A DNA stretch of 64,000 nucleotides from Candidatus Parcubacteria bacterium (GTDB lineage: Bacteria > Patescibacteriota > Minisyncoccia > Phycocordibacterales > Zambryskibacteraceae). Made by a program: the position numbers and the translations under genes. Where the stretch lies: assembly GCA_019658995.1 (NCBI GenBank), contig JAIFWN010000003.1, forward strand, positions 2,436 to 66,435, in the 5' to 3' direction. The notes below the pieces were generated by a model, which saw only the letters and a program-made list of their open reading frames with translations, made no database searches and had not been told where the DNA came from. Shown here in pieces: positions 27,212 through 45,728 of this stretch; position 1 is the stretch's first letter; each line of letters begins with the position of its first letter.

Positions 27212-30200
27212 TTGAAAAAGCACTCTTCTCTGCATCTCATATTCACATTCTTTCTCACGGCGATTCTTATCTACTTGGGCGGATCGCCGCCCGCCGTGAT
27301 GTCCGCCGGAGGAGTGCCATCTATCATAAGTTACCAGGGGCGGCTTGCTGACTCGGCAGGCAACCTCCTCGGCAGCTCATCGGGAACCACATATTTTTTT
27401 GCCTTTTCTATTTGGGATAATGCCACGGTCGGTTCCGGCACGAAGCTCTGGCCTGTGGCCACAACCAGTGTGCCGACGACGGTCAAGTCGGGCGTATTCA
27501 ATGTCAATATTGGTGATACGGCAGGAGGTTATCCGGATACTCTTAACTACACCTTCACCAGCCCTAATATTTTCCTCCAGGTTGATGTGTCATCAAATGG
27601 CACAACCTGGGAAACAGTTTCTCCGCGCCAAAGACTCTCATCGGCTGTATTTGCACAGGTAGCAGAGGCGGTAGTGGGGGCTTCTTCGACCGTAACTACT
27701 CTCACCAATACCAATTTCTACGGTACCTTTGCTACTACGACCAGTGCTACCACTACCAACCTTTTTGCCAATTTTTTAAACAGCGCAACCGTCACAGCTA
27801 GCGGCTTGGGAACATTCGGCAATTTCTTGGCGCTCGGCTCTACGACTCTTCAGAACTTTACTGCACTAAATTCGACAACGACGAATGCCACCACTACGAA
27901 TATTTATGTGAATGGCAAGCTCTACGGAGCCAACCTCACCAACTGCAATAGCAATGCAGACAAACTGCTCTGGGCCAATGGCCTCTTCTCCTGTGGGACA
28001 GATGGAGGCGGAGGTGGATCGGACGTGGATTGGCTCTTCTTCAACAACACCGGAATAAGACTTGGCACTACTACCAACCAGGTCTTGATCGGGTTCAATG
28101 CCACTTCATCTCTGGCTATGCTTGAGCTCAATGTGCAAGCAGGCAAGATACCGCTCTTCATCGGATCGTCGACGGAGTTGTTCAAGATAGACGACTATGG
28201 CCTTGTCTCGGCGAAAAATCTTCTCCTTGACTCTTCAACCACCCTTCAGAACTTCACCTTCGTGAGCGCTACGGGATCACAGGCCACCACTACGAATCTC
28301 TTTACCAACACACTTTTCTCGACTACCGCTTCGTCTACGAATCTCTTTGCCAATACGGCCACCTTCGGCACTCTCGTAGCAGCGAGCTTCAATCCTGCCA
28401 ATATTACGACTGGTAACCTGCTTGTCACTGGCTCATCCACTCTCCAGAATTTCACCTTTATCAACGCCACAGGTTCCCAGGCTACTACCACCAACTTCTT
28501 CTCAACGGGTATCTTCTCAACGATTTTAAATAATTCAGGCCTAGCCACTCTTGGAAATATATTGTCCTCTGGATCATCGACGCTTCAGAACTTCACTTTC
28601 ATTAACGCTACCGGAACTTCCGCTACGACTACCAACTTCTTCTCCATCAATGCTTCGACCACCAACCTCTGGGCTAATGTCATCAGTTCCGGCCTCATTA
28701 ACGGCCAGACTATTACATCCGCTGCTAACTTTACCGGTACTCTAAATGCGACTGGAGGTTTAACAACTCTCTCAAATTTGTTAGTGGCAGGCTCTTCCAC
28801 TCTCCAGAATTTCACCTTTGCTAACGCTACCGGTTCTCAAGCTACGACTACTTACTTCTTCAGTACAAACCTCTTTGGCACGAATGGAAATCTAACAAAC
28901 TTGATATTCAGTCTGGCTACCGGTACCTCTGCCACCACCACTAATTTTTTCAGCACTACCGCCTCTTCTACTAACCTCTTCGCAACCACACTCAATACCG
29001 GTAATATTACCTCCACCGCTCTTGCTACCCTCGCCAATCTCTTAGTATCTGGATCTTCCACTCTCCAAAATTTCACTTTCGTTAACGCCACTGGCTCGCA
29101 AGCCACTACCACGAATCTCTTCTCTGCCAACCTCTTTGGCACTACAGGTTTCCTCACTAACTTACAGCTAAATGGTTCCTCAACTCTCCAAAACTTTACT
29201 TTCTCTAACGCTACCGGCACTTCCGCTACGACTACTAACTTCTTCGCCACCAATGCTTCGACCACCAACTTATGGGCCAACATCATATCTTCGGGTTTGA
29301 TAAACGGCCAAAACATTACAAGTGCCGCTAACTTCACTGGGACTCTCAATGCTACTGGCGGATTGACAACGCTTTCAAACTTGCTTATATCTGGATCTTC
29401 CACTCTCCAGAACTTTACCTTCGTCAACGCCACCGGGACCTCCGCCTCCACTACCAACTTCTTCGCCATCAATGCTTCCACCTCAAACCTCTTCGCCAAC
29501 TCTCTCACAGTAGGGAATATCACTTCAATCCAGGAAACAATCACCAACCTTCTGGCCCTAGGTTCTTCGACCCTGCAGAACTTTACCGGACTTAATTCGA
29601 CCACTACCAATGCCACTACCACCCGTTTAGCCATCATTTCTCTCAACTGCGGGACTTTTACTAACAATGGCAAGCTCACCACTAACGCTGATGGCACGGT
29701 TTCCTGCAGTGATGATATCGCTGCCACACAGGATGTCGATTGGATATTCTTCAACAACACCGGAGTGCGTCTGGCCACGACCACAAACCAAGTTCTCATC
29801 GGTGCAAGCGCCACATCATCTCTAGCCAATCTTGAGATCAGCTTCCAGACAGCAGCTAAGGGCTCACTTCTCACTCTCGGTTCATCGACTCTACAGAATT
29901 TCACCTTCATCACAGCCACCGGCACTGCGGCTACCACTACCAACTTCTTCGGCACTAATATCTTCTCTACGATTCTTAATAACTCGGGTCTGGCGACCCT
30001 GGGAAATTTGCTTGTATTAGGATCCTCAACTCTTCAGGATTTCACTTTCGTTAACGCCACTGGCTCGCAAGCCACTACAACCAGCCTCTTTTCGGCGAAT
30101 GTATTTGGTACGAATGCTAACCTGACAAATCTTATCTTCAGTCTGGCTACCGGCACCAGCGCCACAACTACTAACTTGTTCTCTGGCATATCAAGTTCGA

Positions 30201-33200
30201 CAAATCTCTTCTCTTCAGTTTTGACAGTCGGTAGCAATGCGCTCTTAGTTAACTCAAGCGGCTTTGTAGGCATTGCTACCACTTCGCCATTTGCCAGGCT
30301 TTCGGTAATGCTCAATGCCGGAGATACTAATACCACCGTTTTCGCAATCGGTTCCACCACTGCTACGGGCTTTACAAATCTCTTGAGAGTGGACAATCAA
30401 GGTTCAACTACAGTTAAGACCCTGCGTTTCGACGATACCGGTGCCAACAACCTTTTCTGGACGATACGGGAGGAGTCAGGCAATAACCTGGAAATTTTCT
30501 ATCCCTCGATTCGTCGTGGCGTGTTTGTTAACGCTGGCAATGGAGGCTTTCTCGGAATTGGTACTACCTCAATGCAGGGCTTCTCGTCATTCATCGTTGC
30601 CTCGGCTACCCCGACTATGGAGATTATGGACAACAACGGTCCTGTGGATCTGAAGCACTGGCTCATAAGCGCGGATGCCGGGAAATTCTTCATAGGCAGA
30701 GCGACGGATGACCTTTTATCAACTACCACTTACTTCTTCGTTGACGGCAATATGGGCGGCAATATAGGTCTCAATGAGGCATCACCGAACTTCAGACTCG
30801 AGGCGACAGGTACCAGCGGCAGCGGCTACTTCGGTATTACCAACGCCTCTGACGGCGACGTATTCAGCATTATCTCCACCGGTAATGTGGGAGTCAATGA
30901 TGCCACCCCGGACTTTAAGTTCGAGAGTAACGGCTCGAACGCGAGCGGCTACTTCGGCATCACTAACTCGAGTGATGGAGATATCTTTGCGATAGACGGG
31001 AGCGGAGAAGTGGGCATCGGCATAGTGAATCCGTCATACGCTCTCCATATAGTGGATGATACGAACGAGACGCTCGCCATTGAAACCATTCACACAACCG
31101 GTACATCTCTTGTAATCAAGAACACCAGCGGCGGCGGACACTCCTTTTCTCTCACCAGTACGGGCTCCGACGGCTCGCCAGGCAACTTCGTCATTAGAGA
31201 CAATACGGCGAACTTTACCGGCTTTGATCTTGCCGGAGCCACCGGCAACCTGCAGATTACGCGCGATGCCTACTTCGGCTGGTCATCGAACGCAAGCGAT
31301 GCAAAGGTTGCGGCCGATACTATACTCTCGCGCATCTCTGCCGGGGTTGTTGGCACGGCAAATCTTATACTCTCCGGCAATTCGACCACGTCGCAGGCTA
31401 CTACCACGAACTTCTTCTCGGCAACTATCTTCTCTGATCTTCTAAACAACTCCGGTTTGGCCACACTCGGCAATATGCTTGTTCTCGGCTCGTCCACTCT
31501 CCAGAATTTCACATTCGGCAACGCCACTGGCTCTCAAGCCACCACGACGAACCTTTTCTCGACTAAGGGTAGCTTCACCACTATCTGCTTCACCGGAGAT
31601 GTTTGCCGAACGTCATGGCCATCGACTGGCGGAGGCGGGGGATCAGACACCAATTGGCAATTCTTTAATAATTCTGGCATCCGGCTTGCTACGACTACCA
31701 ACCAGGTTCTCATTGGCGCTTCGGCTACCACATCTCTCGCTAACCTCGAGATCGCCTTCCAGACAGCAGCCGGAGGATCTCTGTATGCTCTTGGCTCCAC
31801 CACCCTTAATAATTTCGCCTTTGCTAACTCAACCGGATCTCAAGCAACTACTACCAACCTATTCTCCACCAATATCTTCAGTACGACAGGAAACGTCTCA
31901 GGCACTCAAACAGCGGGGAATTTGCTCGCCCTCGGATCTTCAACCCTTCAGAACTTCACATTTAGGAACGCTACTGGGAGTGATGCGACTACAACAAATT
32001 TCCGTGTTTCTAATAGAGCAAATATCGTGGATCTCACGGTTGGTAGTATAGAGGGCCTTAATTCAGCATCCTTTAATGTTACAGATGATGCCTCGGGTAT
32101 ATTCGAAGTCAATTCAGCGTCAGTAGGAGATGTATTCACTGTGAATGATTTTGGAACCCCCTATTTTTCAAGGAATCTCGGACTTGGCACATCGACGCCG
32201 TCTGCCAACCTGACGATACAGGATCCCAATCCAGAAATAAATTTCTATGAAAGTAATAACTTCGCCAAAACCAGGCTGGTTCAGCTTGGCGATTCGGAAT
32301 TCGATATCGTTATGTATGACGGTTCGGGTGTTGTCACAAACGCTCTCAATATGAATTTCAACGGCGAAAACGAATACCTTTCCGGTATGTCTGGAACACT
32401 CGGCAGCAATGCAAGCGCTCGGCATGTGTTCTACATCTCACAAAGTGAAGTTGGGGGATTCGATTACAGAGGACTTTTCTCTATTGGTAGTACTAAAACA
32501 AGCGGTGGAACAGCTGTGGCGGCACTCGATGTGACTGGAAACGGTTACATAAGCGGCAAGCTAGGAGTAGGTACAACTACTCCGTATGCAGGCCTCCAAA
32601 TAGCCACATCTACAAGGCCGCAACTCATACTTACGGATATTCTGGCCGGACCTAATGTCAAACATTTCTATGCATCTTCTACGAACGGCCGTCTTGCCAT
32701 AGGCAATCTAAGCGATAATCTCGGATCCTTTACCGATATCATGGACTTGAGCTCGACAGCGATAAACTTCACGCTTGGCAGCGAGGAAAATAAAAGTTTC
32801 AATATCAAAGATGGCCCCGGGCTAACCACTCTCTTTTCGGTTGATAACGATACCAAGACAGTGGGTATCGGGACCACTACGCCCGGAGCTAAATTAGAAG
32901 TGGCCAAAACCTCTTCTGGAGCTACCTCAGATGCTCTCTTCCTTTCCAACCAGGCCTCCGCAACCAATACAGCTACCCGCCTCTCCTTCAGAGCCCAGGA
33001 TATAAAGAATATTGCTACCACTACAGCTTCAATCGTCGGTTTATTGGGTAAGAATTTCGATCAAGCTACCTCAACCCTGATCTTCTCCACACAAAATGCC
33101 GGCACCCTCACCGAGCAAATGCGATTAACTGACACAGGCCTCCTGCTGATCGGATCAACTACACTGCAAAATTTTACATTCAGAAATGCTACCGGCACCT

Positions 33201-35455
33201 CGGCTACAACCACCAACTTCTTCGCTACGAACGCTTCAACCACTAACTTTTTCGCTAACGTAATAAGTTCAGGTCTTATCAATGGCCAGACAATATCAAG
33301 CGCTGCGAACTTCACAGGCACTCTCAATGTCACAAGCGGTCAGACAACCGTATCAAATCTTTTGGCGACGGGATCCAGCACCCTCCAGAACTTCACTTTT
33401 GTTAATGCTACTGGCACTTCGGCTACAACCACCAACTTCTTCGCTACAAATGCTTCCACGACTAACCTCTTCTACGCCAACGCTGTCGGAGGAGCGGAGA
33501 CCCTGAGTGGATTGCTGACGGCTGCCAATATCCGATCGAACGGCTCGTCCACCCTCCAGAACTTCACATTTGTAAATGCGACGGGTTCCCAGGCTACGAC
33601 TACAAATTTGTTCTCAACTAACTTATTTGGCACGACAGGCAACTTCTCTGGTCTCTTAACTCTCGGAAATCTTTTGCTCACAGGCTCTTCGACCTTCCTG
33701 AATCTAACTTTTGTTAATGCTACCGGCACTTCCGCCACAACTACAAATCTCTTTGCCACCACGCTCTTCTCAACCACTCATAACAACTCGGGTCTGATCA
33801 CTACAGGCAATCTCCTGGCATCAGGCTCTTCAACTTTGCAGAGTTTTACAGCAATTAATTCGACAACATCACAGGCTACCTCGACCAATTTCTTCTCAAC
33901 GAATATCTTCGGCACAACAGGAAATATTTCTGGACTCTCGACTTTCGGCAATCTCCTTGTGTCCGGGTCGAGCACGCTTCAAAACCTCACCTTCTCCAAT
34001 GCGACGGGCTCGCAAGCTACCACAACAAATATCTTCTCCACTAACATCTTCGGCACGACTGGAAATGTTTCCGGTCTGGCTACTTTGGGTAACCTCCTCG
34101 TCTCCGGCTCCTCCACTCTTCAGAACTTCACTTTCGTTAATGCTACCGGCACTTCCGCTACAACAACAAACTTCTTCGCTACGAATGCTTCTACTACCAA
34201 TCTCTTCTTCACGACCAGCAGGGGAGGATCGGAGACCCTCACTGCCACTCTCACCGCCAATAATCTTCTTGCTAACGCTTCTTCCACTCTCCAAAACTTC
34301 ACATTTGTTAACGCCACAGGCTCACAAGCGACGACAACGAATCTGTTTGCAACCAATCTTTTTGGCACTACGGGAAATATATCGGGTACGCAGACAGTGG
34401 GGAATTTACTCTCGCTAGGCTCATCAACCTTACAAAACTTCACATTCTCTAACGCCACAGGCACTTCAGCGACCACAACCAACTTCTTTGCTACCAATGC
34501 TTCGACCACAAACTTCTGGGCAAACGTTATATCTTCTGGTCTTATCAATGGCCAAACCATTACCTCTGCAGCCAACTTCACCGGAACTCTTAATGTTACA
34601 AGCGGACAAACTACACTCTCAAATCTTCTTGTTACTGGGTCTTCAACCCTCCAGAACTTCACCTTCATAAACGCGACGGGTTCCCAGGCTACTACAACAA
34701 ATTTATTTGCCACAACTCTATTCTCAACAACACACAATAATTCGGGTCTTGGTATATTTGGCAATATTCTGTCCCTTGGCTCATCTACTCTTCAGAATTT
34801 CACGTTTGCTAATGCTACCGGTTCCCAGGCGACAACAACCAGTCTTTTTGCGACGAAAGCAGACTTTACAACTCTATGTATAGCTCAGGATTGTAAAACA
34901 GCCTGGCCTACGTCCGGAGGAGCTTCCACTGATAAGTTTGCAACTTCAACAAACGGATTGGCAATTTATCCGAACAGCGCCGCGGCAGTAGTGATAGGCG
35001 GCAGTGCCACAACCACAACCGGAGCAGAGCTCGAAGTACTCGGGGATATCTATGTTTCTGGTTCCTCAACCCTTCAGAACTTTACCTTCATAAACGCCAC
35101 AGGAACTTCAGCGACCACTACTAATTTATTTAGTACTACGGCTTCTTCTACAAACCTCTTCGCTACTGCTATCCAAGCCGGTACGGCCACATTCAATAAT
35201 ATTCTTGGGAACAGCTCCTCCACTCTCCAAAACTTCACCTTCGTCAACGCTACGGGTACATCGGCCACCACCACCAATTTCTTCGCTACCAACGCCTCTA
35301 CTACCAACTTCTTCTTTACCACATCGAACGGCGGCAACGAGACCCTTACTGCTCGAACTTCACATTCATCAACGCCACTGGCTCCCAGGCTACGACCAGT
35401 AACCTATTCAGTACGAATATATTTGGTACCACCGGCAATTTGTCTGGACTCCTGA
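27212..35455 (+). CDS. Giant Thr/Asn-rich repetitive surface/fibre protein, N-terminal part
   Basis: Signal/TM segment, IISYQGRL domain, dozens of GSSTLQNFTFxNATG(T/S)xATTTN repeats, VGIGTTTP modules. Frame breaks at about 35355. Confidence 0.85.
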   Translation: MKKHSSLHLIFTFFLTAILIYLGGSPPAVMSAGGVPSIISYQGRLADSAGNLLGSSSGTTYFFAFSIWDNATVGSGTKLWPVATTSVPTTVKSGVFNVNIGDTAGGYPDTLNYTFTSPNIFLQVDVSSNGTTWETVSPRQRLSSAVFAQVAEAVVGASSTVTTLTNTNFYGTFATTTSATTTNLFANFLNSATVTASGLGTFGNFLALGSTTLQNFTALNSTTTNATTTNIYVNGKLYGANLTNCNSNADKLLWANGLFSCGTDGGGGGSDVDWLFFNNTGIRLGTTTNQVLIGFNATSSLAMLELNVQAGKIPLFIGSSTELFKIDDYGLVSAKNLLLDSSTTLQNFTFVSATGSQATTTNLFTNTLFSTTASSTNLFANTATFGTLVAASFNPANITTGNLLVTGSSTLQNFTFINATGSQATTTNFFSTGIFSTILNNSGLATLGNILSSGSSTLQNFTFINATGTSATTTNFFSINASTTNLWANVISSGLINGQTITSAANFTGTLNATGGLTTLSNLLVAGSSTLQNFTFANATGSQATTTYFFSTNLFGTNGNLTNLIFSLATGTSATTTNFFSTTASSTNLFATTLNTGNITSTALATLANLLVSGSSTLQNFTFVNATGSQATTTNLFSANLFGTTGFLTNLQLNGSSTLQNFTFSNATGTSATTTNFFATNASTTNLWANIISSGLINGQNITSAANFTGTLNATGGLTTLSNLLISGSSTLQNFTFVNATGTSASTTNFFAINASTSNLFANSLTVGNITSIQETITNLLALGSSTLQNFTGLNSTTTNATTTRLAIISLNCGTFTNNGKLTTNADGTVSCSDDIAATQDVDWIFFNNTGVRLATTTNQVLIGASATSSLANLEISFQTAAKGSLLTLGSSTLQNFTFITATGTAATTTNFFGTNIFSTILNNSGLATLGNLLVLGSSTLQDFTFVNATGSQATTTSLFSANVFGTNANLTNLIFSLATGTSATTTNLFSGISSSTNLFSSVLTVGSNALLVNSSGFVGIATTSPFARLSVMLNAGDTNTTVFAIGSTTATGFTNLLRVDNQGSTTVKTLRFDDTGANNLFWTIREESGNNLEIFYPSIRRGVFVNAGNGGFLGIGTTSMQGFSSFIVASATPTMEIMDNNGPVDLKHWLISADAGKFFIGRATDDLLSTTTYFFVDGNMGGNIGLNEASPNFRLEATGTSGSGYFGITNASDGDVFSIISTGNVGVNDATPDFKFESNGSNASGYFGITNSSDGDIFAIDGSGEVGIGIVNPSYALHIVDDTNETLAIETIHTTGTSLVIKNTSGGGHSFSLTSTGSDGSPGNFVIRDNTANFTGFDLAGATGNLQITRDAYFGWSSNASDAKVAADTILSRISAGVVGTANLILSGNSTTSQATTTNFFSATIFSDLLNNSGLATLGNMLVLGSSTLQNFTFGNATGSQATTTNLFSTKGSFTTICFTGDVCRTSWPSTGGGGGSDTNWQFFNNSGIRLATTTNQVLIGASATTSLANLEIAFQTAAGGSLYALGSTTLNNFAFANSTGSQATTTNLFSTNIFSTTGNVSGTQTAGNLLALGSSTLQNFTFRNATGSDATTTNFRVSNRANIVDLTVGSIEGLNSASFNVTDDASGIFEVNSASVGDVFTVNDFGTPYFSRNLGLGTSTPSANLTIQDPNPEINFYESNNFAKTRLVQLGDSEFDIVMYDGSGVVTNALNMNFNGENEYLSGMSGTLGSNASARHVFYISQSEVGGFDYRGLFSIGSTKTSGGTAVAALDVTGNGYISGKLGVGTTTPYAGLQIATSTRPQLILTDILAGPNVKHFYASSTNGRLAIGNLSDNLGSFTDIMDLSSTAINFTLGSEENKSFNIKDGPGLTTLFSVDNDTKTVGIGTTTPGAKLEVAKTSSGATSDALFLSNQASATNTATRLSFRAQDIKNIATTTASIVGLLGKNFDQATSTLIFSTQNAGTLTEQMRLTDTGLLLIGSTTLQNFTFRNATGTSATTTNFFATNASTTNFFANVISSGLINGQTISSAANFTGTLNVTSGQTTVSNLLATGSSTLQNFTFVNATGTSATTTNFFATNASTTNLFYANAVGGAETLSGLLTAANIRSNGSSTLQNFTFVNATGSQATTTNLFSTNLFGTTGNFSGLLTLGNLLLTGSSTFLNLTFVNATGTSATTTNLFATTLFSTTHNNSGLITTGNLLASGSSTLQSFTAINSTTSQATSTNFFSTNIFGTTGNISGLSTFGNLLVSGSSTLQNLTFSNATGSQATTTNIFSTNIFGTTGNVSGLATLGNLLVSGSSTLQNFTFVNATGTSATTTNFFATNASTTNLFFTTSRGGSETLTATLTANNLLANASSTLQNFTFVNATGSQATTTNLFATNLFGTTGNISGTQTVGNLLSLGSSTLQNFTFSNATGTSATTTNFFATNASTTNFWANVISSGLINGQTITSAANFTGTLNVTSGQTTLSNLLVTGSSTLQNFTFINATGSQATTTNLFATTLFSTTHNNSGLGIFGNILSLGSSTLQNFTFANATGSQATTTSLFATKADFTTLCIAQDCKTAWPTSGGASTDKFATSTNGLAIYPNSAAAVVIGGSATTTTGAELEVLGDIYVSGSSTLQNFTFINATGTSATTTNLFSTTASSTNLFATAIQAGTATFNNILGNSSSTLQNFTFVNATGTSATTTNFFATNASTTNFFFTTSNGGNETLTARTSHSSTPLAPRLRPVTYSVRIYLVPPAICLDS

Positions 35456-36000: not shown

Positions 36001-39000
36001 ACAGCCCTGGCTATAAGCAGTCTTAATTGTTCTTCGGGCGCACAGCTCCTCCAGACAAACTCATCAGGCAGCGTAATCTGCGGTACGGACGATGGCGGTG
36101 CCGGCAGTACGCCTGGGGGTAATGCCGGAGCAGTACAGTTCAACGACGGTGCAAGCGGCTTCACCGGCAACGAAAACTATCTGTTCTTCAGTAATGCCAA
36201 TAAACTCTTTGGTATCGGAAGCTCCACTCCGACTGCTATTTTATCGGCGTCGAGTACGACTGCGCTGCTTCCGGTAGCAATCTTTGATCAGCGCAGTACG
36301 GGAGGGCTTCTTACTCTCCAGCGTTCGGGAGTGGACAAGTTCACAGTCAGTAACGACGGCGGACTCAATATTTATGGCGCAACTTCCGATTCTGTCAAAA
36401 CCACTACGGGCACCGGCAAATCATCTGACTTCGACTTTACCGGTTCCACTATCGCAACCGCCAGCACTACCGCAACAAACGGTTATGTGACTATCATTGA
36501 CGGCACGATCTCCGGAGACGGTATAGTTTCCGCAACCACTACTACGACCGGTACGGTCATAGGAAACGGCGCCCAGGTTATCATTCGCTCCGACGGGCAA
36601 TATGTGATTATCCAAGGAGGTGGTACGGCAACAGCTTCTATCTGGGACGGATTCAAGAGTGGTTCCGGTGCAGCAAGCATGGCAACCACTACCATCGCTA
36701 CCGGCGGTACGGTTAACACAGGCGCTATAGCTGTCAAGCGCCCAGACGGCAGATATGTCATCTTCCACGGAGGTGCCGCTAACTTGAGTTCGATATTTGA
36801 TCCTTACAACATAACAGCAGCGGTAGCCGGTCCGCCTCCGGGAGGAGCTTGTACGACCGGTACTAACGCATTTCTGCGTCCCGACGGCAAGTATGTAGTC
36901 ATATGCGGAGGAACTACGGGATGGGGAGTATATGATCCGTCTCAGGCTCCTCCGGGCTCACTTACTGCCGGTACCGCCATAGGCGGCAACTGGGGGGCTG
37001 GCGCACACGCACTCTCAAGAGATGACGGAACCTTCCTTGTTTATCAGGGAGGTGGATCCAATACCTTTATTTACAATCCGTTCACCAATACCATGACAGC
37101 GGGTCCTACTGCGCCCGCCGCTATTGCCGCCGGTGCTTTATCTGTTCGGAGGCAGGACGGCACATTCCTTACTCTTCCGGGAGCGGCCAATACTTCCTAT
37201 TCCTATAATCCGGTAAGCACTACAACGCCGAACGGGCAGGGAGCCTTCGTTACCAATTTCGGAGTCGGACCTTCATCATCACTCTCTGACGGCTCGACAA
37301 TACTCTGGAGACAAGACGGGAAGTACACTCTGATTACCGCCAATACTACCGTGTTAAACGTGGTAGATCCCGGTTCCGGATCTATTGTTCCTAAGTTTAC
37401 CAATCCGGGCGCACCCCTAGCTCTTTCCGGGAATGCCGGAGCGGGTATCACTGCCTTTATGCTGCCGAACGGCAGGTACGCCATACTGCGCGGCGGCGGC
37501 CAAGCCATTGATACTTACGACATGAACTTCGCTACCGGTTTATCGAGCGGCAATGTTCAAAATTCATACTACGAAAGCGAATGTATAGATAACACCAATT
37601 TGTCCTTGGACTCGACTCTGAACTGGAACAAAAATGACGAAGGCACTATCTCGGCCCAAATAAGAACTGTAACCAGTCCTCAGGACTGCTCGACGGCGAC
37701 ATACCGCACCATACAATCTAGCGGCAGTCTCATTGGTGCCACCACTACGGCCAACAACAGGGTCCAGTTCAAATTCTTCTTCCAGCGCGAACTTCCGAGA
37801 TTCCTCGACCAGGAGTGGGGTGTGCGTAAGACCGCGCAGACCAGATACCGCCGCGTCAACGCCGACCCGGTCCTCTATGATGTAACGGTAGACAACTCCA
37901 CATCACTCCATAGAACGCAGTTCGACTTTGGCAATGCCGTATCCTCTACTACGGCACCATCTTCAGGACCGGTAGCGGTTAACATTACCAATGACACAAA
38001 CCGCAACAACGCCTTAGCTCTGGCTGCAGGCGTCGGCTACGGCACTACCATTAACACTGCGAATAACGGCTATTACAACGGAGCTTTTGGCTTTGCCCAG
38101 CCGCTTTCAACACCGACAGCATCCACCACCGTGGTAATGAAGCGCCCCGATGGCAAGTTCACTATCATTGCCGGTAACAATACGATCAACTCCAATGTTT
38201 ATGACCCGGCACTGGCTACCTCTACTGCCGCCACTGCCGCAGCCAATAAACCTACGGTACAAATAGGCAATGGCGCATTGGCCTTCAAGCGTCCCGATGG
38301 CAAGTTCCTGATAGTCATGGGTAACACGAGCAGTACCACGGTCTCCTCCGTTGGTGCTACTACTACGAACATTTATGATCCGGTTACCGACACGTACGTT
38401 GCCGGACCGAATCTGGCAACCGGCGGAAGCAGTAACGGTGCCGGTGCCGGCGCGGCTGTCATTCCTCTCCCTAGCGGCAGGGTACTCATCATTCATGGCA
38501 ATGCTACCAACGCTACTTCTGTATATGATCCGGTACAGAACACCATGACTGCCGGACCGAATCCTACGGCTGTAGTAGGTTACGGTTCAATAGTGATTCC
38601 TCGTCCTAACGGCCAGTATATGTTCATACCCGGTATGGTCTCGCTTACCTCTTGTACGGTGAACACCACAGTTAACCTCTTCGATCCATATGCCATGGTG
38701 TTTACTACAAATGCTGGTGTGGCTAATGCAGGCGGCACAGGACCGGGAGCCTTTGCATTACAAAGGAGTGACGGCACATGGCTCATAGTTCGTGGAGGTG
38801 CATCAACCGGTTGTCTCGGTACGGGCACTACTGCTATCTATGATCCAGTCTCCCATCTGTCCACTATTACCGGTCCTGGTTTATCAACAAATGTCGGCCT
38901 TGGAGCTTACGCTCTGCCTCGTCCTGACGGCACATGGCTTCTTGTAAATGGCGGCGGCGGAGTATCACTCGCCGGTCAGAGTGCTACACAAATATATATA

Positions 39001-41061
39001 GAACGAGGTGGAGGGTTAACCGCTACCGGTGACCAGTCAACAATTGGCGCATTTATCTCTGGTCCGACGATGAACGTGGCGGCAAATAGCGGAGGTACGG
39101 CCTTTCAGCTTCCTGACGGCAAGTTCGCCATCATAACGGGAGCTGCGACTACCACTACATCCAACAGTATGCAGTTCTACGATGCAGGATGGGTAGCGAG
39201 TGGCATATACAGGTCTGAGCAATTTGACCTCTCTCCAGTGGGGACGAAGCTCGATTCCAACTCAACTCTTAACTGGAAGTCGAACATGATATCATCCGCT
39301 GTGGGCGGTATCTCCGCCGAAGTAAGGAGCGCTCCCACACAAGCTGCTCTGGCAACGAGTACTACGAGGGAGATACCGATATCGGGCGGACTCATCAATC
39401 CGGCCGCCACCGACACCTGGCTCCAGATAAACTTCAACTTCAGGAGAAGCTTCCCATCTTACGGAGGTATATACAGCGACGTATGGTACTCTTCCGCATC
39501 TATGAGCTATCCACTTCGTCCTGTTGTTACTCCGACTTTGTATGAATTTAAGATAACAAAAGATGATGATCTTTTGACTCTTAACGCCGATGGCTTGGCG
39601 CTCTTCAGAGTCAACTCTGGCGGAGACGTCTATACATCGACAGGAGGCACCATCAACACCTCCGGCGCAGACCTTGCCGAGCGCTATACCTCGCAAGAGC
39701 CTCTCGACTTCGGCGAAGTGGTCTCGGTCGATCCGATGAATAATCATGCGGTCAAGAAAACTTCTTACCAATATCAGCCCGATGCACTCGGTGTGGTCTC
39801 GACCGATCCGGGCTTCGTGGCGGGCGCTTATACTGAAGATTCTTATCCAATAGCTCTTGTCGGCCGCGTGCCGGTAAAGGTTTCGACGGAAAACGGCTTC
39901 ATCCGCGCCGGCGACAAGCTCACAGCAGCGAGCGTCCCTGGCTATGCCATGAAGGCTACTCTTGCCGGACATGTTATCGGCCACGCACTCGAGAATCTTA
40001 AGAGCGATAAGCTTGTAGACTGCCCGGCAAGCAGTATCGTCATACCCGGCAGGAAGTGCGGAGTTGTGATGATGTTCGTCAGCCTTGGGGATTTCATAGG
40101 AGAACCGGTTGGCGATGCCATGATGGAGTACAACAGTTTGCACAATATAGATATTTCGAGCTTTGCTACTACATCTGTGATGCTCGGCGATGAAGCTATA
40201 GGCATTGTACCGGGTACGAGGGAAGCCAACGTATTGAACTTCCTAGAAAACCTGAGGAAGGATAGGGAAGCCGGCTCTTCTTACCGCTCCGAAGTATTTG
40301 CCGATAGAGTATCGGCTGTTTCAGACATTATCGCGCCAAACATTTTTACCCGTATTCTCAAGGCTGAAAGTGTGGAAGGACTGACATTTAAAAGCGATAA
40401 GGTCATTGCCAATGCTTTGGTAGTAAATAGCATCGGTGCTGAGGGCACGACCACGCTAGCTCTTATGGGTGATGTGAACTTCTTCGGTCGACCTTACTTT
40501 ACTTCGGACACTGCTGGCAGTGCCATCATAAAGAAGGGCGCTAAAACAGTGGAGATCATCTTCGACAAGGAGTACATCGATACGCCGATAGTGAGTTCCA
40601 CTATCGCTCTTGAGTCGGCTTCGACGAGCGAAGCACAGGAAGAAGAGATATTCACTCAAGATATCCGCTTCATAGTCTCAAGAAAGAGTGTTCACGGCTT
40701 TACCATAATCTTGAACAAGCCGGCTCCAAACGACATCGGCTTCAGCTGGATAGCTCTGGCGGTGAAGGACTCAAAACTCTTCACCTCAAGAGAAATACCG
40801 CTTGCCGAGACTACTCCGATCACCGCAGTTGTAGAATCTGTGCCTCCTCCGCCAACAACTCCGCCAGTCTCAAATGAGCCGACTTCTACAACCACTATGC
40901 CAGTTGAGGCAACAAGCACTCCATCTATGATAGAAACCACGCCTACAACTACTCCTTCCGTATTACCATCTGAACCAGAATTAACTCCCCAAGTCGAGCC
41001 CGAATCAACACCTATAGTTGATGTTTCTCCATCTGAACCATCCCCGCAAAGCGGGCCATAA
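35356..41061 (+). CDS. Giant surface/fibre protein, C-terminal part (Kelch-like propellers, Peptidase_G2-like domain, Pro/Thr tail)
   Basis: Same repeat resumes in the new frame from 35356 (NFTFINATGSQ). Then 2x7 RxDG blades, ADLAE...GVVSTDP...ALVGRVPVKV, and a P/T/E-rich end. Confidence 0.85.
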   Translation, partial: NFTFINATGSQATTSNLFSTNIFGTTGNLSGLLTLGNLLLTGSSTLQNFTFVNATGTSATTTNFFATNASTTNLFATAIQAGTATFNTILANASSTLQNFTFVNATGTSATTTNFFATNASTTNFFFTTSNGGNETLTARTNATTTGTLNVNGLQFADNGANNRYWTITEDAGNNLQISYPVATDVRINQNFLVSGSTTLQNFTSLNATTAQATTTALAISSLNCSSGAQLLQTNSSGSVICGTDDGGAGSTPGGNAGAVQFNDGASGFTGNENYLFFSNANKLFGIGSSTPTAILSASSTTALLPVAIFDQRSTGGLLTLQRSGVDKFTVSNDGGLNIYGATSDSVKTTTGTGKSSDFDFTGSTIATASTTATNGYVTIIDGTISGDGIVSATTTTTGTVIGNGAQVIIRSDGQYVIIQGGGTATASIWDGFKSGSGAASMATTTIATGGTVNTGAIAVKRPDGRYVIFHGGAANLSSIFDPYNITAAVAGPPPGGACTTGTNAFLRPDGKYVVICGGTTGWGVYDPSQAPPGSLTAGTAIGGNWGAGAHALSRDDGTFLVYQGGGSNTFIYNPFTNTMTAGPTAPAAIAAGALSVRRQDGTFLTLPGAANTSYSYNPVSTTTPNGQGAFVTNFGVGPSSSLSDGSTILWRQDGKYTLITANTTVLNVVDPGSGSIVPKFTNPGAPLALSGNAGAGITAFMLPNGRYAILRGGGQAIDTYDMNFATGLSSGNVQNSYYESECIDNTNLSLDSTLNWNKNDEGTISAQIRTVTSPQDCSTATYRTIQSSGSLIGATTTANNRVQFKFFFQRELPRFLDQEWGVRKTAQTRYRRVNADPVLYDVTVDNSTSLHRTQFDFGNAVSSTTAPSSGPVAVNITNDTNRNNALALAAGVGYGTTINTANNGYYNGAFGFAQPLSTPTASTTVVMKRPDGKFTIIAGNNTINSNVYDPALATSTAATAAANKPTVQIGNGALAFKRPDGKFLIVMGNTSSTTVSSVGATTTNIYDPVTDTYVAGPNLATGGSSNGAGAGAAVIPLPSGRVLIIHGNATNATSVYDPVQNTMTAGPNPTAVVGYGSIVIPRPNGQYMFIPGMVSLTSCTVNTTVNLFDPYAMVFTTNAGVANAGGTGPGAFALQRSDGTWLIVRGGASTGCLGTGTTAIYDPVSHLSTITGPGLSTNVGLGAYALPRPDGTWLLVNGGGGVSLAGQSATQIYIERGGGLTATGDQSTIGAFISGPTMNVAANSGGTAFQLPDGKFAIITGAATTTTSNSMQFYDAGWVASGIYRSEQFDLSPVGTKLDSNSTLNWKSNMISSAVGGISAEVRSAPTQAALATSTTREIPISGGLINPAATDTWLQINFNFRRSFPSYGGIYSDVWYSSASMSYPLRPVVTPTLYEFKITKDDDLLTLNADGLALFRVNSGGDVYTSTGGTINTSGADLAERYTSQEPLDFGEVVSVDPMNNHAVKKTSYQYQPDALGVVSTDPGFVAGAYTEDSYPIALVGRVPVKVSTENGFIRAGDKLTAASVPGYAMKATLAGHVIGHALENLKSDKLVDCPASSIVIPGRKCGVVMMFVSLGDFIGEPVGDAMMEYNSLHNIDISSFATTSVMLGDEAIGIVPGTREANVLNFLENLRKDREAGSSYRSEVFADRVSAVSDIIAPNIFTRILKAESVEGLTFKSDKVIANALVVNSIGAEGTTTLALMGDVNFFGRPYFTSDTAGSAIIKKGAKTVEIIFDKEYIDTPIVSSTIALESASTSEAQEEEIFTQDIRFIVSRKSVHGFTIILNKPAPNDIGFSWIALAVKDSKLFTSREIPLAETTPITAVVESVPPPPTTPPVSNEPTSTTTMPVEATSTPSMIETTPTTTPSVLPSEPELTPQVEPESTPIVDVSPSEPSPQSGP

Positions 41062-41069
41062 AATAAAAT

Positions 41070-41471
41070 ATGACAAAAAAATATAAACTTGCTTTAAGTG
41101 TTGCTCTAGTTTTGGTGATGGGCGTGTTTGTTGGAGTAGGGATCGTAAAGGCGACTGGAAGTAACCAAATAACCACTTTTAATTTAATAGGGGATAATAA
41201 GTTCAAATTTCATGTAGTTAGCTTCGATTGCTCTACATCTACTGACGAAACTTTCACATTACCTACAACCGTTCAGAATAACGGAGTGATTCAAGTAGTA
41301 AAAACAGATTCAACCTCTTGCTCTGGTAGAAAGATAACTCTCCTACCATCTTCGGGAGATATGATTGAAGGCGGACCCGAATATGTTATTTTTTCTGGTA
41401 CAGGTTCTGCAGTTACATTTGTTGCTGACGGAGCAAATAGAAATTGGTGGGCAATTAGTAGCTATAGATAG
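41070..41471 (+). CDS. Small exported protein with phage-tail-accessory-like motif
   Basis: Signal/TM segment, TFTLP...VVKTD...ITL...DMIEG...VTFVADG...WW pattern. AT-rich. Confidence 0.6.
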   Translation: MTKKYKLALSVALVLVMGVFVGVGIVKATGSNQITTFNLIGDNKFKFHVVSFDCSTSTDETFTLPTTVQNNGVIQVVKTDSTSCSGRKITLLPSSGDMIEGGPEYVIFSGTGSAVTFVADGANRNWWAISSYR

Positions 41472-41523
41472 TAAATTAGTCATAATCTAGCTGGTCATAC
41501 TTGGCTCTGCTATAATTCGCTCA

Positions 41524-41919
41524 ATGGAAAATTTGAAGCAGGAATTCAAGAGTCTGTCTAAGAAGTTAAGAATGGTATTTCTGGCAGTTCTGACAGTCGG
41601 GATCCTTAGCTTAATCTCAACGGCCGTATTGGCAGAGAAGCTCCAGAAGGCTTCGGATCCGGCTCTGGCTGCGCAGGAAGAGATACAGAAGGTCGTGGCT
41701 GAAGTGGGAAGGTTCATAATCCTGCCTGACGATGAGACCCCAACCATGGCAACTGTCTCGGACCCCTCGAAGCTTAGCGGCCAGCCGTTCTTCGAAAATG
41801 CGGAAGCTGGTGATAAGGTTCTCATCTATACCATATCCAGGAAGGCTATACTCTGGAGACCGTCTACAAAGAAAATAATCGAGGTAGCCTCTATCAATGT
41901 CACTTCTCCAGCACAATAA
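41524..41919 (+). CDS. Conserved bitopic hypothetical protein
   Basis: TM helix, then LPDDETPTMATVSD...QPFFENAEAGDKVLIY...KAILWRPS. Preceded by TGCTATAAT. Confidence 0.75.
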   Translation: MENLKQEFKSLSKKLRMVFLAVLTVGILSLISTAVLAEKLQKASDPALAAQEEIQKVVAEVGRFIILPDDETPTMATVSDPSKLSGQPFFENAEAGDKVLIYTISRKAILWRPSTKKIIEVASINVTSPAQ

Positions 41920-43243
41920 CAGAGCACTTAAGGTTCTCATTCTCTCTTTCGTCTTTGCCGGAATATTTTCCACAGCTAGGGCGCAAAACTTCTCTTCCGG
42001 CGGCTATTCCGTACTCGCTCCAGTTATCGCTCCCGGCGGACACTCTACCTCCCCAAGCTACTCTCTCATAAGCGTAATATCCCAGCTTGCCATAGGCACT
42101 TCATCGGCAACCGCTTTTAATCTATCAAGCGGTTTCCTGTATTATCCCTTCATAACCACGCCTATTCTCGCGGCCACTCCGGGTAATGCGCAGGTAGTGC
42201 TCAATTGGACGGCTGCCGACGGTGTGCTTGGCTGGTCGGTCGGCTCGTACTCGGTGGGACAAACTGTTACGGCGGGCAGTGATTACTCATACACTAATGT
42301 CGGCAATGTACTCACCTCGACTCGTACAGGACTTTCCAATGGCACTACTTACTACTTTATAATCCGGGTCATCGACGCGGCTGGCAATACAGTAGCTACT
42401 TCGACTGAAGTCTTTGCTATGCCCGTCGCTCCGGCTGGCGGAGGAGGTGGAGGCGGGGGCGGAGGTGGCGGAGGAGGTGGAGGCGGGGGCGGAGGATACA
42501 CTGGCGGTGGTACTGGGAGCGGCAGAGTGAACTTCTCAGGACGGGCCTATCCGCGAAGTACGGTGACGGTTCTTAAGGACGCACAAGTTGTCATTACTAC
42601 CGTGGCTGATGCTGCAGCCAACTTCGCAGTCTCACTTATGAACCTCTCGGGAGGTAATTACTTCTTCTCATTATATAGCGAAGACAACAATGGCGTGCGC
42701 AGCAGTCTCCTGACCTTTCCGGTTTCCGTTACCGATGGCTCTACCATGAATATCGGAGGCATCTTCATCACTCCGACCATTGCCGTAGACAAAAGCGAAG
42801 TCAAAAGGGGAGACAATATCTCTATCTTTGGCCAGACGGCCGCCCAGAGTGATGTCACGATCCAGGTTAACTCCGACGAGCCCTTCTTCGCCAAAACCAA
42901 GGCTGATGCCTCCGGTGGCTATCTCTATAATTTCGACACGGTGCCACTTGAGTATGGCGACCACAGCACCAAATCCAAGAGCGCTTTGTCGGGTGAGATC
43001 AGCTCATTCAGCTCCGTTGCCGCCTTCAAAGTCGGCACACAGAACGTGCTTATAGGCAACTTGCCGAAGACTTGCAATAAAAAGGGCGATACCAACAAGG
43101 ACTGCAAGGTTAACCTTGTGGACTTCTCTATAGTAGCCTTCTGGTACAAGCGCCCCAATCCGCCGGCCAATGTCGATCTGAACGGCGATAAAAAAGTGGA
43201 CCTCATAGACTTTTCCATACTGGCTTATAACTGGACCGGATGA
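41897..43243 (+). CDS. Secreted FN3 + poly-Gly + Ig-like + dockerin protein
   Basis: Signal peptide. FN3 (ATPGNAQVVLNW...TGLSNGTTYYFII), G20 linker, two Ig-like repeats (SGRAYP, FGQTA), duplicated Ca-loops GDTNKDCKVNLVD and DLNGDKKVDLID. Confidence 0.82.
   Translation: MSLLQHNNRALKVLILSFVFAGIFSTARAQNFSSGGYSVLAPVIAPGGHSTSPSYSLISVISQLAIGTSSATAFNLSSGFLYYPFITTPILAATPGNAQVVLNWTAADGVLGWSVGSYSVGQTVTAGSDYSYTNVGNVLTSTRTGLSNGTTYYFIIRVIDAAGNTVATSTEVFAMPVAPAGGGGGGGGGGGGGGGGGGGGYTGGGTGSGRVNFSGRAYPRSTVTVLKDAQVVITTVADAAANFAVSLMNLSGGNYFFSLYSEDNNGVRSSLLTFPVSVTDGSTMNIGGIFITPTIAVDKSEVKRGDNISIFGQTAAQSDVTIQVNSDEPFFAKTKADASGGYLYNFDTVPLEYGDHSTKSKSALSGEISSFSSVAAFKVGTQNVLIGNLPKTCNKKGDTNKDCKVNLVDFSIVAFWYKRPNPPANVDLNGDKKVDLIDFSILAYNWTG
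42437..42496 (+). repeat. 30-bp tandem duplication encoding Gly20
   Basis: GGCGGAGGAGGTGGAGGCGGGGGCGGAGG(T/A) twice. Confidence 0.9.
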
Positions 43244-44010
43244 TGAAATACCCAATATATATAGCATCTCTTATGCTTCTGCTCCCTGTGACTCTCTCCG
43301 CAGCTACGGCTGTTATAGAAGTTGATACGATATCGGAATCCGTGAACGCACTCGAAGCTACTGTCCGGATCCCTTTAGGTATGGAAGTTAAAGAAGTCCG
43401 AAGCGGTGATTCGGTAATAGTCTTTTGGATCACTCCGCCTACGCTGTCGACATCGACAAATTCCATTTCCTTTGCCGGATTTACTCCGGGCGGGTTCAAG
43501 GGCAAACGGACGGTCTTCTCTGTTGTCGGTGAGTTCGACAAGAGCGATCTCTCCGGCATAACATTCAGCGCGGTGCAGGCGCTTAAGAACGACGGTGAGG
43601 GCACGTCTGCCTCGGTCAGGCTTAGCGCCTCTCTTTCAGAATCGGTAGAGGATACCATCGTGCCGGAAACATTTGCTCCTCTTCTGTCGCGATCCGACGA
43701 TGTCTATGCCGGCCGGCTGTTCGTTTCCTTCTCGGCTCTCGATAAGAATACCGGTGTAGCCAAGTTTGAGGTAGCCGAGACCTTCTTCGGCCGACCTGAT
43801 GACGAGGACTGGGTGGAGGCCGCAAGTCCGTATGAAGTCAAAGACAATCTGCTCTTGAAGAGAGTTTATATAAAAGCTACTGACCATAAGGGCAATTACA
43901 GAGTAGAGTCTGTTTCTCTGCCGTACAGGCTCCCCGCAGAGATTTTCCTTGCTATAATTATTGGAGCGTTATGTATACTCGCTCTTCGCTATTCAAAGCG
44001 CTCTTCGTAA
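43240..44010 (+). CDS. Cohesin-like protein with C-terminal membrane anchor
   Basis: Signal peptide, VNALEATV...FW...ISFAGFTPGGF...ALKNDGEGT (paralogous to the next gene), Ig-like domain, TM helix and basic tail. Confidence 0.65.
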   Translation: MMKYPIYIASLMLLLPVTLSAATAVIEVDTISESVNALEATVRIPLGMEVKEVRSGDSVIVFWITPPTLSTSTNSISFAGFTPGGFKGKRTVFSVVGEFDKSDLSGITFSAVQALKNDGEGTSASVRLSASLSESVEDTIVPETFAPLLSRSDDVYAGRLFVSFSALDKNTGVAKFEVAETFFGRPDDEDWVEAASPYEVKDNLLLKRVYIKATDHKGNYRVESVSLPYRLPAEIFLAIIIGALCILALRYSKRSS

Positions 44011-45728
44011 TAATCTTCTTCGTCGCGCCGGTTCTGGCCAGTGCCGCTACGCTCTTCATTTCGCCGGAATCAGATTCATACGCTGCGGGAAAAACTTTCT
44101 CTATAAGAGTCAGGGTTTCTTCGCCTCAGGCTATCAATGCGGTATCGGGATCTCTCACCTTTCCGACGGACAAGCTGCAGGTTACATCGGTTTCTAAAAC
44201 CGGCTCGATACTGACTCTGTGGGTTGCCGATCCTTCATACTCCAACTCTGATGGCAAGGTGAGCTTCGAAGGTGTTGTACCTAACCCGGGATGGAGCGGT
44301 ACGGGTGGAACTGTCGCTACCGTCAGCTTCCGCGTAGTCGGATCAGGCTCCGCCAAGGTTTCCTATACGGCCGCATCGGTCCTGGCAAACGATGGCAATG
44401 GTACAGAGCTCTGCTACAATTGCGGTCTCTCAGCGACATACACCCTAGGCGGAGCTCCAGCTCCGGTAGTCCCGGCTGAGGAAGTCGAGCCTTCGGGTAC
44501 TCCCGGCGCTCCCAATATCACTTCGTCTTCGCACCCGGTGCAGAGCAAATGGTATGGGGAGGAAGATGCCAAGTTCTCCTGGACGAACGAGCCGGGCGTG
44601 ACGGCAACCAGAGTGCTTCTGGGAAAGAGCGCCAATTCCACTCCGACCGCGGAGTACACTCCGCCCATAACTAATAGGGAGATAGACAATATCGAAGATG
44701 GCATATGGTATTTCCACGTACAGAACAAGAATAGTAAAGGTTGGGGTTCGACCGCCCACTACATGATCAAGGTCGATACCACTGATCCTGACTCATTTGT
44801 AATGAAAGAGGTGGCGCGTCCCGATGATACCGATCCGAGAGTCAGACTGTCGCTCTCTGCCTCCGACGATACCTCGGGTATAAAGTCCTTCGGCATTCAA
44901 GTGGACAAGGGTGAGATGCAAGACTGGGTCGAAGACGGTACCGGCATATATGTGACAGATCCTCTGCCGCCGGGCGAGCATACAATTTTTGCCAGAGCTT
45001 ATGACGAGGCGGGGAACTTCGCTACGGCTTCGGTTAATGTGGAGGTGAAGGGAATCCCGGCACCCAAGATCACTTCGTATACCGACAAGATTTCCGGATC
45101 GGCGCCAATCATTGTAAGAGGTACAGCTTTGCCAAACTCGATAGTTAGAGTCACTCTTACTAAGGGCGGATCTCTCGGCGGGATCTTCGGCTCCGACTCC
45201 GGAGAAATATCACCGTTTACCAAGGATACCAAATCCGATGACTCCGGCGATTTCTCACTTTCTCTGGATACCAAGGGCATGGAGAGCGGAGCATACGACT
45301 TGACCGCCATAGCTATAGACCGTCGAGGCGCCCAAAGCGAGCCGACCGCACCGAAGACCGTGCTCATCAACGCCGGATGGCTCCGCTCTATAGGTTCGAC
45401 GATCCTTACCGTCCTGGCCATAGCGGTGCCAGTGCTTGCACTCCTCTTCCTCCTCTTTATCATATTCATGAGGGGTTTCCATACCGTGAGGATGACCAAC
45501 AGGAAGTTCAGGGCCGAACTTCATAATATAGAGCATCTGGTCGATCAATCCTTCGTCCTTCTCAAGGAAGACGTCGAGGACTCTATCAGGCTATTAGAGA
45601 AGACGAAGTCGAGGAGGAAATTGACCGAGGAGGAGGAGGCTATAATTGATAGGCTCAGACAGAATCTCCGCGATGCCGAGAAGGTCATACACGGTCAGGT
45701 GAGAAGAATAGAGAAAGAAATTGGCTAA
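43971..45728 (+). CDS. Cohesin + Ig-like domains + TM + cytoplasmic coiled coil
   Basis: TLFISP...GKTFSIRVRV...INAVSGSLTFPTDKLQV...GTVATVSFRV..SGSAKVS cohesin pattern, Ig-like repeats, TM helix, helical tail. Confidence 0.78.
   Translation: MYTRSSLFKALFVIIFFVAPVLASAATLFISPESDSYAAGKTFSIRVRVSSPQAINAVSGSLTFPTDKLQVTSVSKTGSILTLWVADPSYSNSDGKVSFEGVVPNPGWSGTGGTVATVSFRVVGSGSAKVSYTAASVLANDGNGTELCYNCGLSATYTLGGAPAPVVPAEEVEPSGTPGAPNITSSSHPVQSKWYGEEDAKFSWTNEPGVTATRVLLGKSANSTPTAEYTPPITNREIDNIEDGIWYFHVQNKNSKGWGSTAHYMIKVDTTDPDSFVMKEVARPDDTDPRVRLSLSASDDTSGIKSFGIQVDKGEMQDWVEDGTGIYVTDPLPPGEHTIFARAYDEAGNFATASVNVEVKGIPAPKITSYTDKISGSAPIIVRGTALPNSIVRVTLTKGGSLGGIFGSDSGEISPFTKDTKSDDSGDFSLSLDTKGMESGAYDLTAIAIDRRGAQSEPTAPKTVLINAGWLRSIGSTILTVLAIAVPVLALLFLLFIIFMRGFHTVRMTNRKFRAELHNIEHLVDQSFVLLKEDVEDSIRLLEKTKSRRKLTEEEEAIIDRLRQNLRDAEKVIHGQVRRIEKEIG

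Follow-up and report, generated by a model that had tools for sequence, protein, structure and literature searches.

An 18.5-kb block of DNA, at positions 27212-45728 of a 64,000-nucleotide stretch of a Candidatus Parcubacteria genome (hereafter the window), encodes a giant fibre, a secreted adaptor that ends in a dockerin, and two cohesin-like membrane proteins. Could these proteins form a continuous chain from the fibre to the cell membrane? Here, we describe the block and weigh a reading that we consider fairly probable, namely that a plug domain of the adaptor grips the base of the fibre and that the adaptor dockerin binds a membrane cohesin. The contig that carries the window (C10) belongs to a 545-kb genome that is 96% complete. 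Housekeeping genes flank the block on this contig, and the named homologues of the block proteins come from Parcubacteria, Paceibacterota and other Patescibacteria. In what follows, G000 denotes the source genome, G001 and so on denote other genomes, and L-numbers denote fetched loci.

The block contains seven open reading frames (ORFs), all on the plus strand, and its last four genes overlap one another, by 23 nt (bitopic protein and adaptor), 4 nt (adaptor and short cohesin) and 40 nt (short and long cohesin); in both respects the ORF coordinates agree with a preliminary description of the window. The first two ORFs make up the fibre gene. The 5' ORF (27212-35455, 2747 aa) encodes a hydrophobic leader, the fibre-base domain (residues 33-163, 27308-27700), which contains a YQGRL strand and is the predicted trimeric socket for the plug, and Thr/Ser/Asn-rich repeats with 23 units of the SSTLQNFTF type. 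The 3' ORF (35440-41061, 1873 aa) encodes the last shaft repeats, Gly-rich R-x-D-G repeats, a chaperone-like domain and a Pro/Thr/Glu tail from 40783. Then follow a 133-aa exported protein (41070-41471), a 131-aa bitopic protein (41524-41919), the secreted adaptor of 448 aa (41897-43243), which is composed of a leader, the plug, FN3, Gly20, an Ig region and the dockerin, a short cohesin-like protein of 256 aa (43240-44010) and a long cohesin protein of 585 aa (43971-45728). Within the block, no match to a glycosidase family exceeds the cut-off of Pfam or NCBIfam, in line with the earlier statement that no glycosidase module is recognisable there, and scans for promoters and terminators inside it gave nothing usable.

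The fibre gene and its small neighbours

The single fibre gene of about 4,600 codons in the preliminary description has to give way to the two ORFs, and the true length of the fibre is uncertain. A stretch of 143 bp (35216-35358) recurs 419 bp downstream, at 35635-35777, with 99.3% identity, and the reading frame shifts where the first copy ends, near 35356-35358. A similar pattern of duplicate and break occurs around a gap of N in the relative G001, and the fibre of the relative G002 is unbroken, with 3144 aa. In our opinion, the break is quite probably an assembly error, that is, a mis-join at the duplicate. Could the system instead be decaying in the source strain, with a real frameshift and with the short cohesin as a relic? 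The break contains no N and the short cohesin is truncated, as would be expected from decay. However, there is a single break in 13.8 kb, which falls exactly at the end of a near-exact duplicate, the short form of the cohesin is common to 6 other genomes, and the pattern in G001 and the unbroken gene of G002 also speak against decay, which we regard as very unlikely.

The fibre-base domain has no match in Pfam, PHROG or the PDB, and no fibre-base matches were found in plasmids or phages. The R-x-D-G repeats of the 3' ORF are propeller-like by eye and match no family, while the 5' ORF (27212-35455) contains 114 N-x-S/T sequons, which come from the shaft repeats. The putative intramolecular chaperone (39670-40110) is of the phi29 gp12 D4 / Peptidase_G2 type. 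It begins at a D-x-A-E-x-Y motif that is invariant in 9 rows and whose Glu would be catalytic, and it shares both this start and a G-R-V-P-V-type block with phi29 gp12 D4 (3gqh), Dpo31 D4 (28nb) and Peptidase_G2. However, the profile matches are weak (28nb, E 5e-4; 3gqh, E 0.02) and below the Pfam cut-off, and about 330 residues follow the domain. PF11962 is matched by 3 of 9 family members, with a best E of 4e-4, and the window's own member has no Pfam match. Consequently, of the autocleaving fibre described earlier, what stands is a chaperone-like domain with weak matches to the phi29 gp12 D4 type, and self-cleavage of the C-terminal domain is plausible from the sequence. An S74 chaperone was rejected for this fibre: the PF13884 matches lie on contigs C5 and C6, and none lies in the fibre gene of the block. 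Three more fibre genes were seen in the source genome (G000:C6:16245-28639 and G000:C15:54802-58650). The two on C6 have S74 chaperones, no fibre-base domain and, by eye, a helix-turn-helix-like N-terminal stretch, and the one on C15 has a weak G2 match.

As for the small proteins, the preliminary description counted the 133-aa exported protein in the block, and a role for it in the system is not supported. The gene has a GC content of 37.8%, no homologue was found in 40 relatives, and it is probably an accessory insertion. The bitopic protein, in turn, is not supported as a member of the cohesin module; it accompanies fibre genes with or without cohesins, and its homologues follow the fibre loci on C6 and C15 of the source genome, both of which lack a cohesin or dockerin. 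In five genomes of the same genus, a 326-334-aa exported protein that is class A beta-lactamase-like by eye lies between the fibre and the adaptor (L033:5650-6654, L034:4708-5688, L035:4693-5673, L036:4835-5824 and L030:10321-11307).

The dockerin-cohesin anchor

The adaptor matches Big_6 with 28.6 bits (cut-off 27.6) and Dockerin_1 (PF00404) with 25.2 bits (cut-off 22.9), the latter rising to 27.2 bits in the whole-genome search, while FN3 stays below its cut-off (E 0.067). Together with the 20 consecutive Gly at residues 181-200, these matches confirm the FN3/Gly20/Ig/dockerin architecture that had been read from the sequence. The dockerin (43079-43240) has two Ca-loop motifs, from D398 and D427, and residues D409, S411, D431, D438 and S440 are invariant in 116 rows. 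The adaptor is the sole protein over the dockerin cut-off in the source genome, and at least 1442 relatives of it occur among 7994 scored candidates.

By hydropathy, a hydrophobic segment lies near the N-terminus and a transmembrane segment at the C-terminus of both cohesin-like proteins, each of which contains one cohesin domain. The ectodomain of the long protein gave a predicted local distance difference test score (pLDDT) of 37.8 with single-sequence AlphaFold2 (AF2), and was remodelled with an alignment. With 86 sequences, residues 25-162 reached a mean pLDDT of 89.1 and were found to have a cohesin fold: the best VIA-align match has Z 15.4 (root-mean-square deviation 2.4 over 133 residues), cohesin-containing chains take every one of ranks 1-17, and the first non-cohesin chain has Z 12.4. 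Foldseek with the whole model returned Ig/FN3 arrays only. Three Ig/FN3-like domains (175-466) and a transmembrane helix (about 482-506) follow, and the cytoplasmic tail beyond it, with conserved residues, is modelled as long helices; the preliminary description saw a cytoplasmic coiled coil there, and the inward link that it suggested through this part is speculative. The transmembrane helix and tail weakly resemble subunit b of ATP synthase (E 0.67), which we put down to the general likeness of helices.

The 256-aa protein is a paralogue of the long cohesin (hhalign 99.9%), with a cohesin-like domain, one Ig-like domain and the transmembrane anchor. It lacks the first strand seen in longer family members, and so do 6 of the 16 other aligned members, from 6 other genomes. 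The search with Pfam Cohesin (PF00963) that had been proposed as a check gives no match for either window protein alone; this model is matched in 10 of 41 genomes and by 2 of 17 members of the short family. Thus, of the two membrane-anchored cohesins described earlier, both have the anchor, the 585-aa protein has the fold, and the 256-aa protein is a paralogue minus one strand. In six loci (L028, L029, L034, L035, L036 and L049), the long cohesin is replaced by two genes, one for a cohesin with the C-terminal tail and the other for a cohesin with Ig domains. In L030, a 308-aa form consists of cohesin, transmembrane helix and tail only, and the cytoplasmic tail is thus the part that is kept.

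The linkage of these genes is conserved. The fetched loci gave 39 dockerin matches, from which we took the 30 Ig-dockerin adaptors that have 2.5 kb or more of sequence downstream. A cohesin gene follows in 29 of these, and two or more follow in 27; note that the cohesin profiles were built from the same family. G024 and G021 have the dockerin at the end of a giant protein (5524 and 5045 aa, respectively), ahead of two cohesin genes. We expect the dockerin to bind the cohesins because cohesin-dockerin biology is well established and because the genes are linked in this way. Alternatively, the plug may hold the fibre while the dockerin and cohesins serve another end, such as a surface lattice, mutual binding or the binding of host ligands, with the fibre held loosely or indirectly. 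Such a division would fit the cohesins of the window missing the Pfam cut-off, the strand absent from the short one and the two or three cohesin genes per dockerin. It would also fit SEML1_0315 of Southlakia epibionticum, a dockerin-bearing surface protein essential for epibiotic growth in transposon sequencing (Wang et al., 2023, PMC10633639), which has no cohesin-annotated neighbour in the available rows of that source. This protein, which we liken to the adaptor by its description in the accessible part of the paper, differs in its length of 927 aa and in its neighbours (a protease, a hydrolase and a tRNA). However, the order of dockerin and then cohesin in 29 of 30 loci, the conserved Ca-loop residues and the giant dockerin fusions ahead of cohesins make a separate function of the trio quite unlikely, and we retain the reading in which the dockerin ties the adaptor to a membrane cohesin.

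What is carried by the anchor varies among the relatives. Pilins of the Pam type, known from Candidatus Mycosynbacter amalyticus (see below), are matched in only 3 of 41 relatives (G009, G010 and G017, of the same genus), whose adaptors lack N-terminal modules and start with one strand resembling a pilin linker by eye; no fibre-base match was found in these three genomes. A chaperone-like gene lies within 15 kb upstream of 16 of 17 complete plug-less adaptors, compared with 0 of 13 plug-bearing ones. Here it should be noted that 4 of the 16 positive loci seeded the profile and that one of the 13 plug adaptors has only 280 bp upstream. NCBIfam types the pilins of the relatives as Pam, the chaperone-like proteins have no family match, and a 'WxL/DUF916-like' label for genes of the relatives was discarded, having no Pfam support. 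The cargo is exchanged between genomes, and the cohesin-dockerin anchor is retained.

Is the block a minimal cellulosome-like device for the display of enzymes? It has a true dockerin and cohesin fold, and a GH18 family gene, itself without a dockerin, lies at 8833-9960 of the window, 18 kb upstream. However, only one dockerin exceeds the cut-off in this 96% complete genome, it sits on a protein without a catalytic family match, and all cohesin proteins are single-cohesin ones, so that we find enzyme display highly improbable. The cellulosome is distinguished from the block by the single, non-catalytic dockerin protein and by the lack of a multi-cohesin scaffoldin in the latter. A closer likeness is offered by single-cohesin and non-cellulosomal pairs (Clostridium thermocellum OlpA/OlpC, 3ul4 and 4dh2; A. 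fulgidus, 2xdh; C. perfringens, 2vo8; R. flavefaciens ScaE, 2zf9), with which the block shares the cohesin fold and the duplicated Ca-loop dockerin. Non-cellulosomal pairs are discussed in the available parts of PMC9012536 and PMC8542988. As in single-cohesin surface anchors, each anchored protein of the block has one cohesin. The differences are that the block uses a C-terminal transmembrane helix rather than SLH domains or sortase (compared with the anchors covered in the accessible part of PMC9012536), and that it has no enzymes or multi-cohesin scaffoldin, its cargo being the fibre, held through a second joint. The dockerin, the cohesin fold and the conserved linkage thus bear out the non-cellulosomal membrane-cohesin system of the preliminary description, and an enzyme-free, membrane-anchored cohesin-dockerin system is supported as real and conserved. 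Elsewhere in the window, two peptide chain release factor genes, presumably for RF2 and RF1, were seen at 980-1858 and 62172-63053.

The plug and the fibre base

Three motifs of the form S-x(2-3)-[FY]-x-[VL] occur in the plug (adaptor residues 30-84, 41984-42148), one each around Y37, Y55 and F74, and all three aromatic residues are present in 108 of 116 rows. Three such motifs suggest a trimeric partner, and therefore three copies of the fibre base were folded with one plug. The predicted complex scores 0.85, compared with 0.00 for the best of 3 controls, among them the plug with an unrelated trimer. The mark set for this score is passed by 116 of 157 solved complexes and by 2 of 215 mismatched pairs, a calibration that is only rough for a 3:1 job with custom alignments. 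The runs share at least 88% of contacts, and the pLDDT of the partner is at least 71; the score covers the plug partner only, and the fibre-base copies around it have a pLDDT of 77-87. In the model, all three base copies use one face (domain residues 7-16, 90-94 and 102-114), and the best contacts with copies 2 and 3 come from residues 55-57 and 74-76 of the plug. A memorised pass is less likely because no sequence relatives of the fibre base or the plug were found in the PDB at E up to 10. The model thus supports the binding of the adaptor plug to a trimeric fibre base.

The distribution of the two domains among genomes can be compared with this prediction. Close homologues of the fibre base (E<1e-25) occur in 12 of 41 relatives and in 2 of 150 other genomes of the phylum, and all 14 genomes also have the plug-FN3 module. 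The plug also occurs in G036, for which no fibre match was found; there the contig ends 280 bp from the adaptor. An iterated plug profile, with 0 matches on 2391 reversed proteins, finds the plug in 9 of 18 fetched loci with distant fibre bases, and the PamT profile adds 2 more. In these distant loci, pilin domains, FN3 proteins or other anchors have the plug at their start, and a single 5078-aa ORF of G015 contains both the plug and the fibre base. Two other arrangements were seen. In G029, which has a close fibre-base homologue, plug and FN3 are fused to a C-terminal part other than Ig-dockerin (L047:1-1066), and in G155 a 1474-aa protein with an N-terminal plug and a C-terminal pilin-type domain adjoins the fibre-base gene (L190:10117-14541). 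No short protein made up of the plug alone was scored in a search for such proteins.

The NCBIfam PamT model, which is independent of our own profiles, leads to the same domain. Its positions 8-78 match the start of the adaptor (E 3.5e-6), in part across the leader. In another protein the match is confined to 27-78, and of the 18 proteins scanned, 15 match. Matches to the PamT N-terminus occur in 14 of 23 genomes with a fibre base versus 15 of 127 without, where kinship inflates any test. Further loci found by the PamT profile have a fibre-base gene within the fetched DNA in 8 of 16 cases, including 2 of 4 true PamT loci, the other two of which lie at contig ends, and the plug is present in 3 scored of the 4 PamT proteins over the cut-off.

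On the other hand, several observations weigh against a plug that grips a trimeric fibre base. An ungapped autocorrelation of the plug profile is not above that of shuffled profiles (242 of 1000 reach it), and the complex is one predicted model of 3:1 format, made with our own alignments and with the trimer state imposed as input. Kin are not independent, and 11 of the 14 genomes with plug and fibre base are from one genus. Neither profile finds a plug in 7 of the 18 distant loci, of which 3 have less than 2 kb upstream. Among fibre-base loci from metagenomes, the plug cassette is found in only 4 of 80, the fibre ORF overrunning the end of the fetched locus in 67 of the 80; among the closed loci with at least 4.5 kb downstream it is found in 2 of 8, and 4 of these are short proteins of 330-360 aa in another context. 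The assembly as given, moreover, has a break in the fibre gene and a truncated short cohesin. Short fibre-base proteins of 330-360 aa, with no plug in the fetched DNA, were seen in six loci (L098, L112, L143, L148, L159 and L166), where the gene directly precedes those of a 252-271-aa membrane protein (TatC-like by eye) and glycosyltransferase-like proteins.

Could the cohesin-dockerin trio then be a surface anchor of general use that only happens to lie beside the fibre gene, with the plug binding another ligand and the complex being a false pass? Fibre-base genes without a nearby plug do exist, other secreted proteins lie directly upstream of the plug adaptor in G003 and G013, and models may place beta-rich peptides of Ser and Gly against many different partners. 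However, the controls scored 0.00, even with the unrelated trimer, the plug accompanies the fibre base on anchors of several types and is fused to it in G015, and the pilin or chaperone-like genes that precede plug-less adaptors (16 of 17) precede none of the 13 plug adaptors. We therefore judge mere neighbourhood to be unlikely. The suggestion in the preliminary description that the system may anchor the fibre accordingly gains a candidate joint in the predicted plug-base link, to which the complex score, the co-occurrence and the PamT profile all point.

Comparison with known systems and a possible mounting code

According to the available text of a preprint on the Pam pilus of Candidatus Mycosynbacter amalyticus (Troman et al., 2026, PMC13278184), a 'tail fibre-like protein' is consistently found beside the pam operon, PamR is described in terms of a spacer, a binding N-terminus and a membrane anchor, and PamT is a plain tip pilin; the words 'cohesin', 'dockerin' and 'trimer' do not occur in that text. 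The plug of the block matches the N-terminus of the PamT model, but it sits directly on the dockerin adaptor. In the 96% complete source genome, the Pam pilin domain (NF058581) has no match, and PamT has no whole-genome match, only the N-terminal 78 positions of the PamT model being matched by the adaptor, with 26.6 bits against a cut-off of 240.

The mosaic adhesive trimer (MAT) fibres of Bdellovibrio are secreted mosaics with a conserved N-terminal domain, and some have a self-cleaving C-terminal chaperone; in the accessible part of that report, the surface element bound by the N-terminal domain awaits identification (Caulton et al., 2024, PMC10769870). The block differs in its chaperone, which is G2/D4-like and not S74, and in its anchor, which is a dockerin-cohesin pair. 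A preprint on giant genes (10.1101/2023.11.21.568195) deals with other phyla, as far as its available text goes. No description of a cohesin-dockerin fibre anchor or of the plug in Patescibacteria was found in a literature search whose coverage leaves out most subscription journals. In its working, the block would resemble a cellulosomal cell-surface anchor, but it belongs neither to the cellulosomes nor to the Pam pili nor to the S74 MAT loci.

The proposed chain would be assembled as follows. The fibre, the adaptor and the cohesins, whose N-terminal hydrophobic leaders are seen in the sequence, would be exported. The fibre would trimerise with the aid of its chaperone-like domain, which may remove itself, to judge from the weak phi29 gp12 D4 matches. 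In the predicted complex, one adaptor chain would set its three similar beta-strand motifs on the YQGRL strands of three bases, with one plug per trimer, and the FN3, Gly20 and Ig domains would act as a flexible spacer. The Ca-loaded dockerin would then bind a cohesin held by its C-terminal transmembrane helix, as family membership and synteny suggest. The fibre would extend as an adhesin, with a host cell as its plausible target, given how bacteria in the candidate phyla radiation (CPR) live. Such a cassette appears modular, since in relatives one linker strand of the Pam type takes the place of the plug, next to Pam pilins, or the dockerin is fused to a 5,000-aa protein.

Beyond the block, the plug may belong to a general fibre-mounting code, in which a single chain of 55 residues would use its three pseudo-repeats to hold YQG-type fibres by their three-fold base and would be joined to interchangeable anchors. 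We put this forward tentatively, with slightly less confidence for it than against it. Just as tentative is the range of anchors, which would comprise dockerin-cohesin pairs, Pam pilus tips and direct transmembrane anchors, with type IX secretion system (T9SS) and IPTL-CTERM tails elsewhere. The latter come from the Atlas, where plug-like models outside Patescibacteria are found on T9SS-tail, IPTL-CTERM, dockerin and stand-alone proteins (TM-score 0.47-0.61, short), and look-alikes of the fibre base in Bacteroidota and Verrucomicrobiota (0.93); both are leads only.

The link between plug and fibre base is newly proposed here. If the mounting code holds, PamT would be a fibre carrier, and the plug may be the missing surface partner of the Bdellovibrio MAT fibres; should the fibre base and the N-terminal domain of MAT fibres be homologous, the plug would name a candidate for the anchor sought by Caulton et al. 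For a cultured CPR parasite, it is predicted that the N-terminus of PamT carries the tail-fibre-like protein encoded beside the pam operon. As a tool for display, a plug that holds a trimer with one chain would also be of use. Finally, the finding bears on how Patescibacteria retain adhesins on a monoderm surface, for which the locus would offer a full fibre-to-membrane chain, with each joint accessible as small soluble domains.

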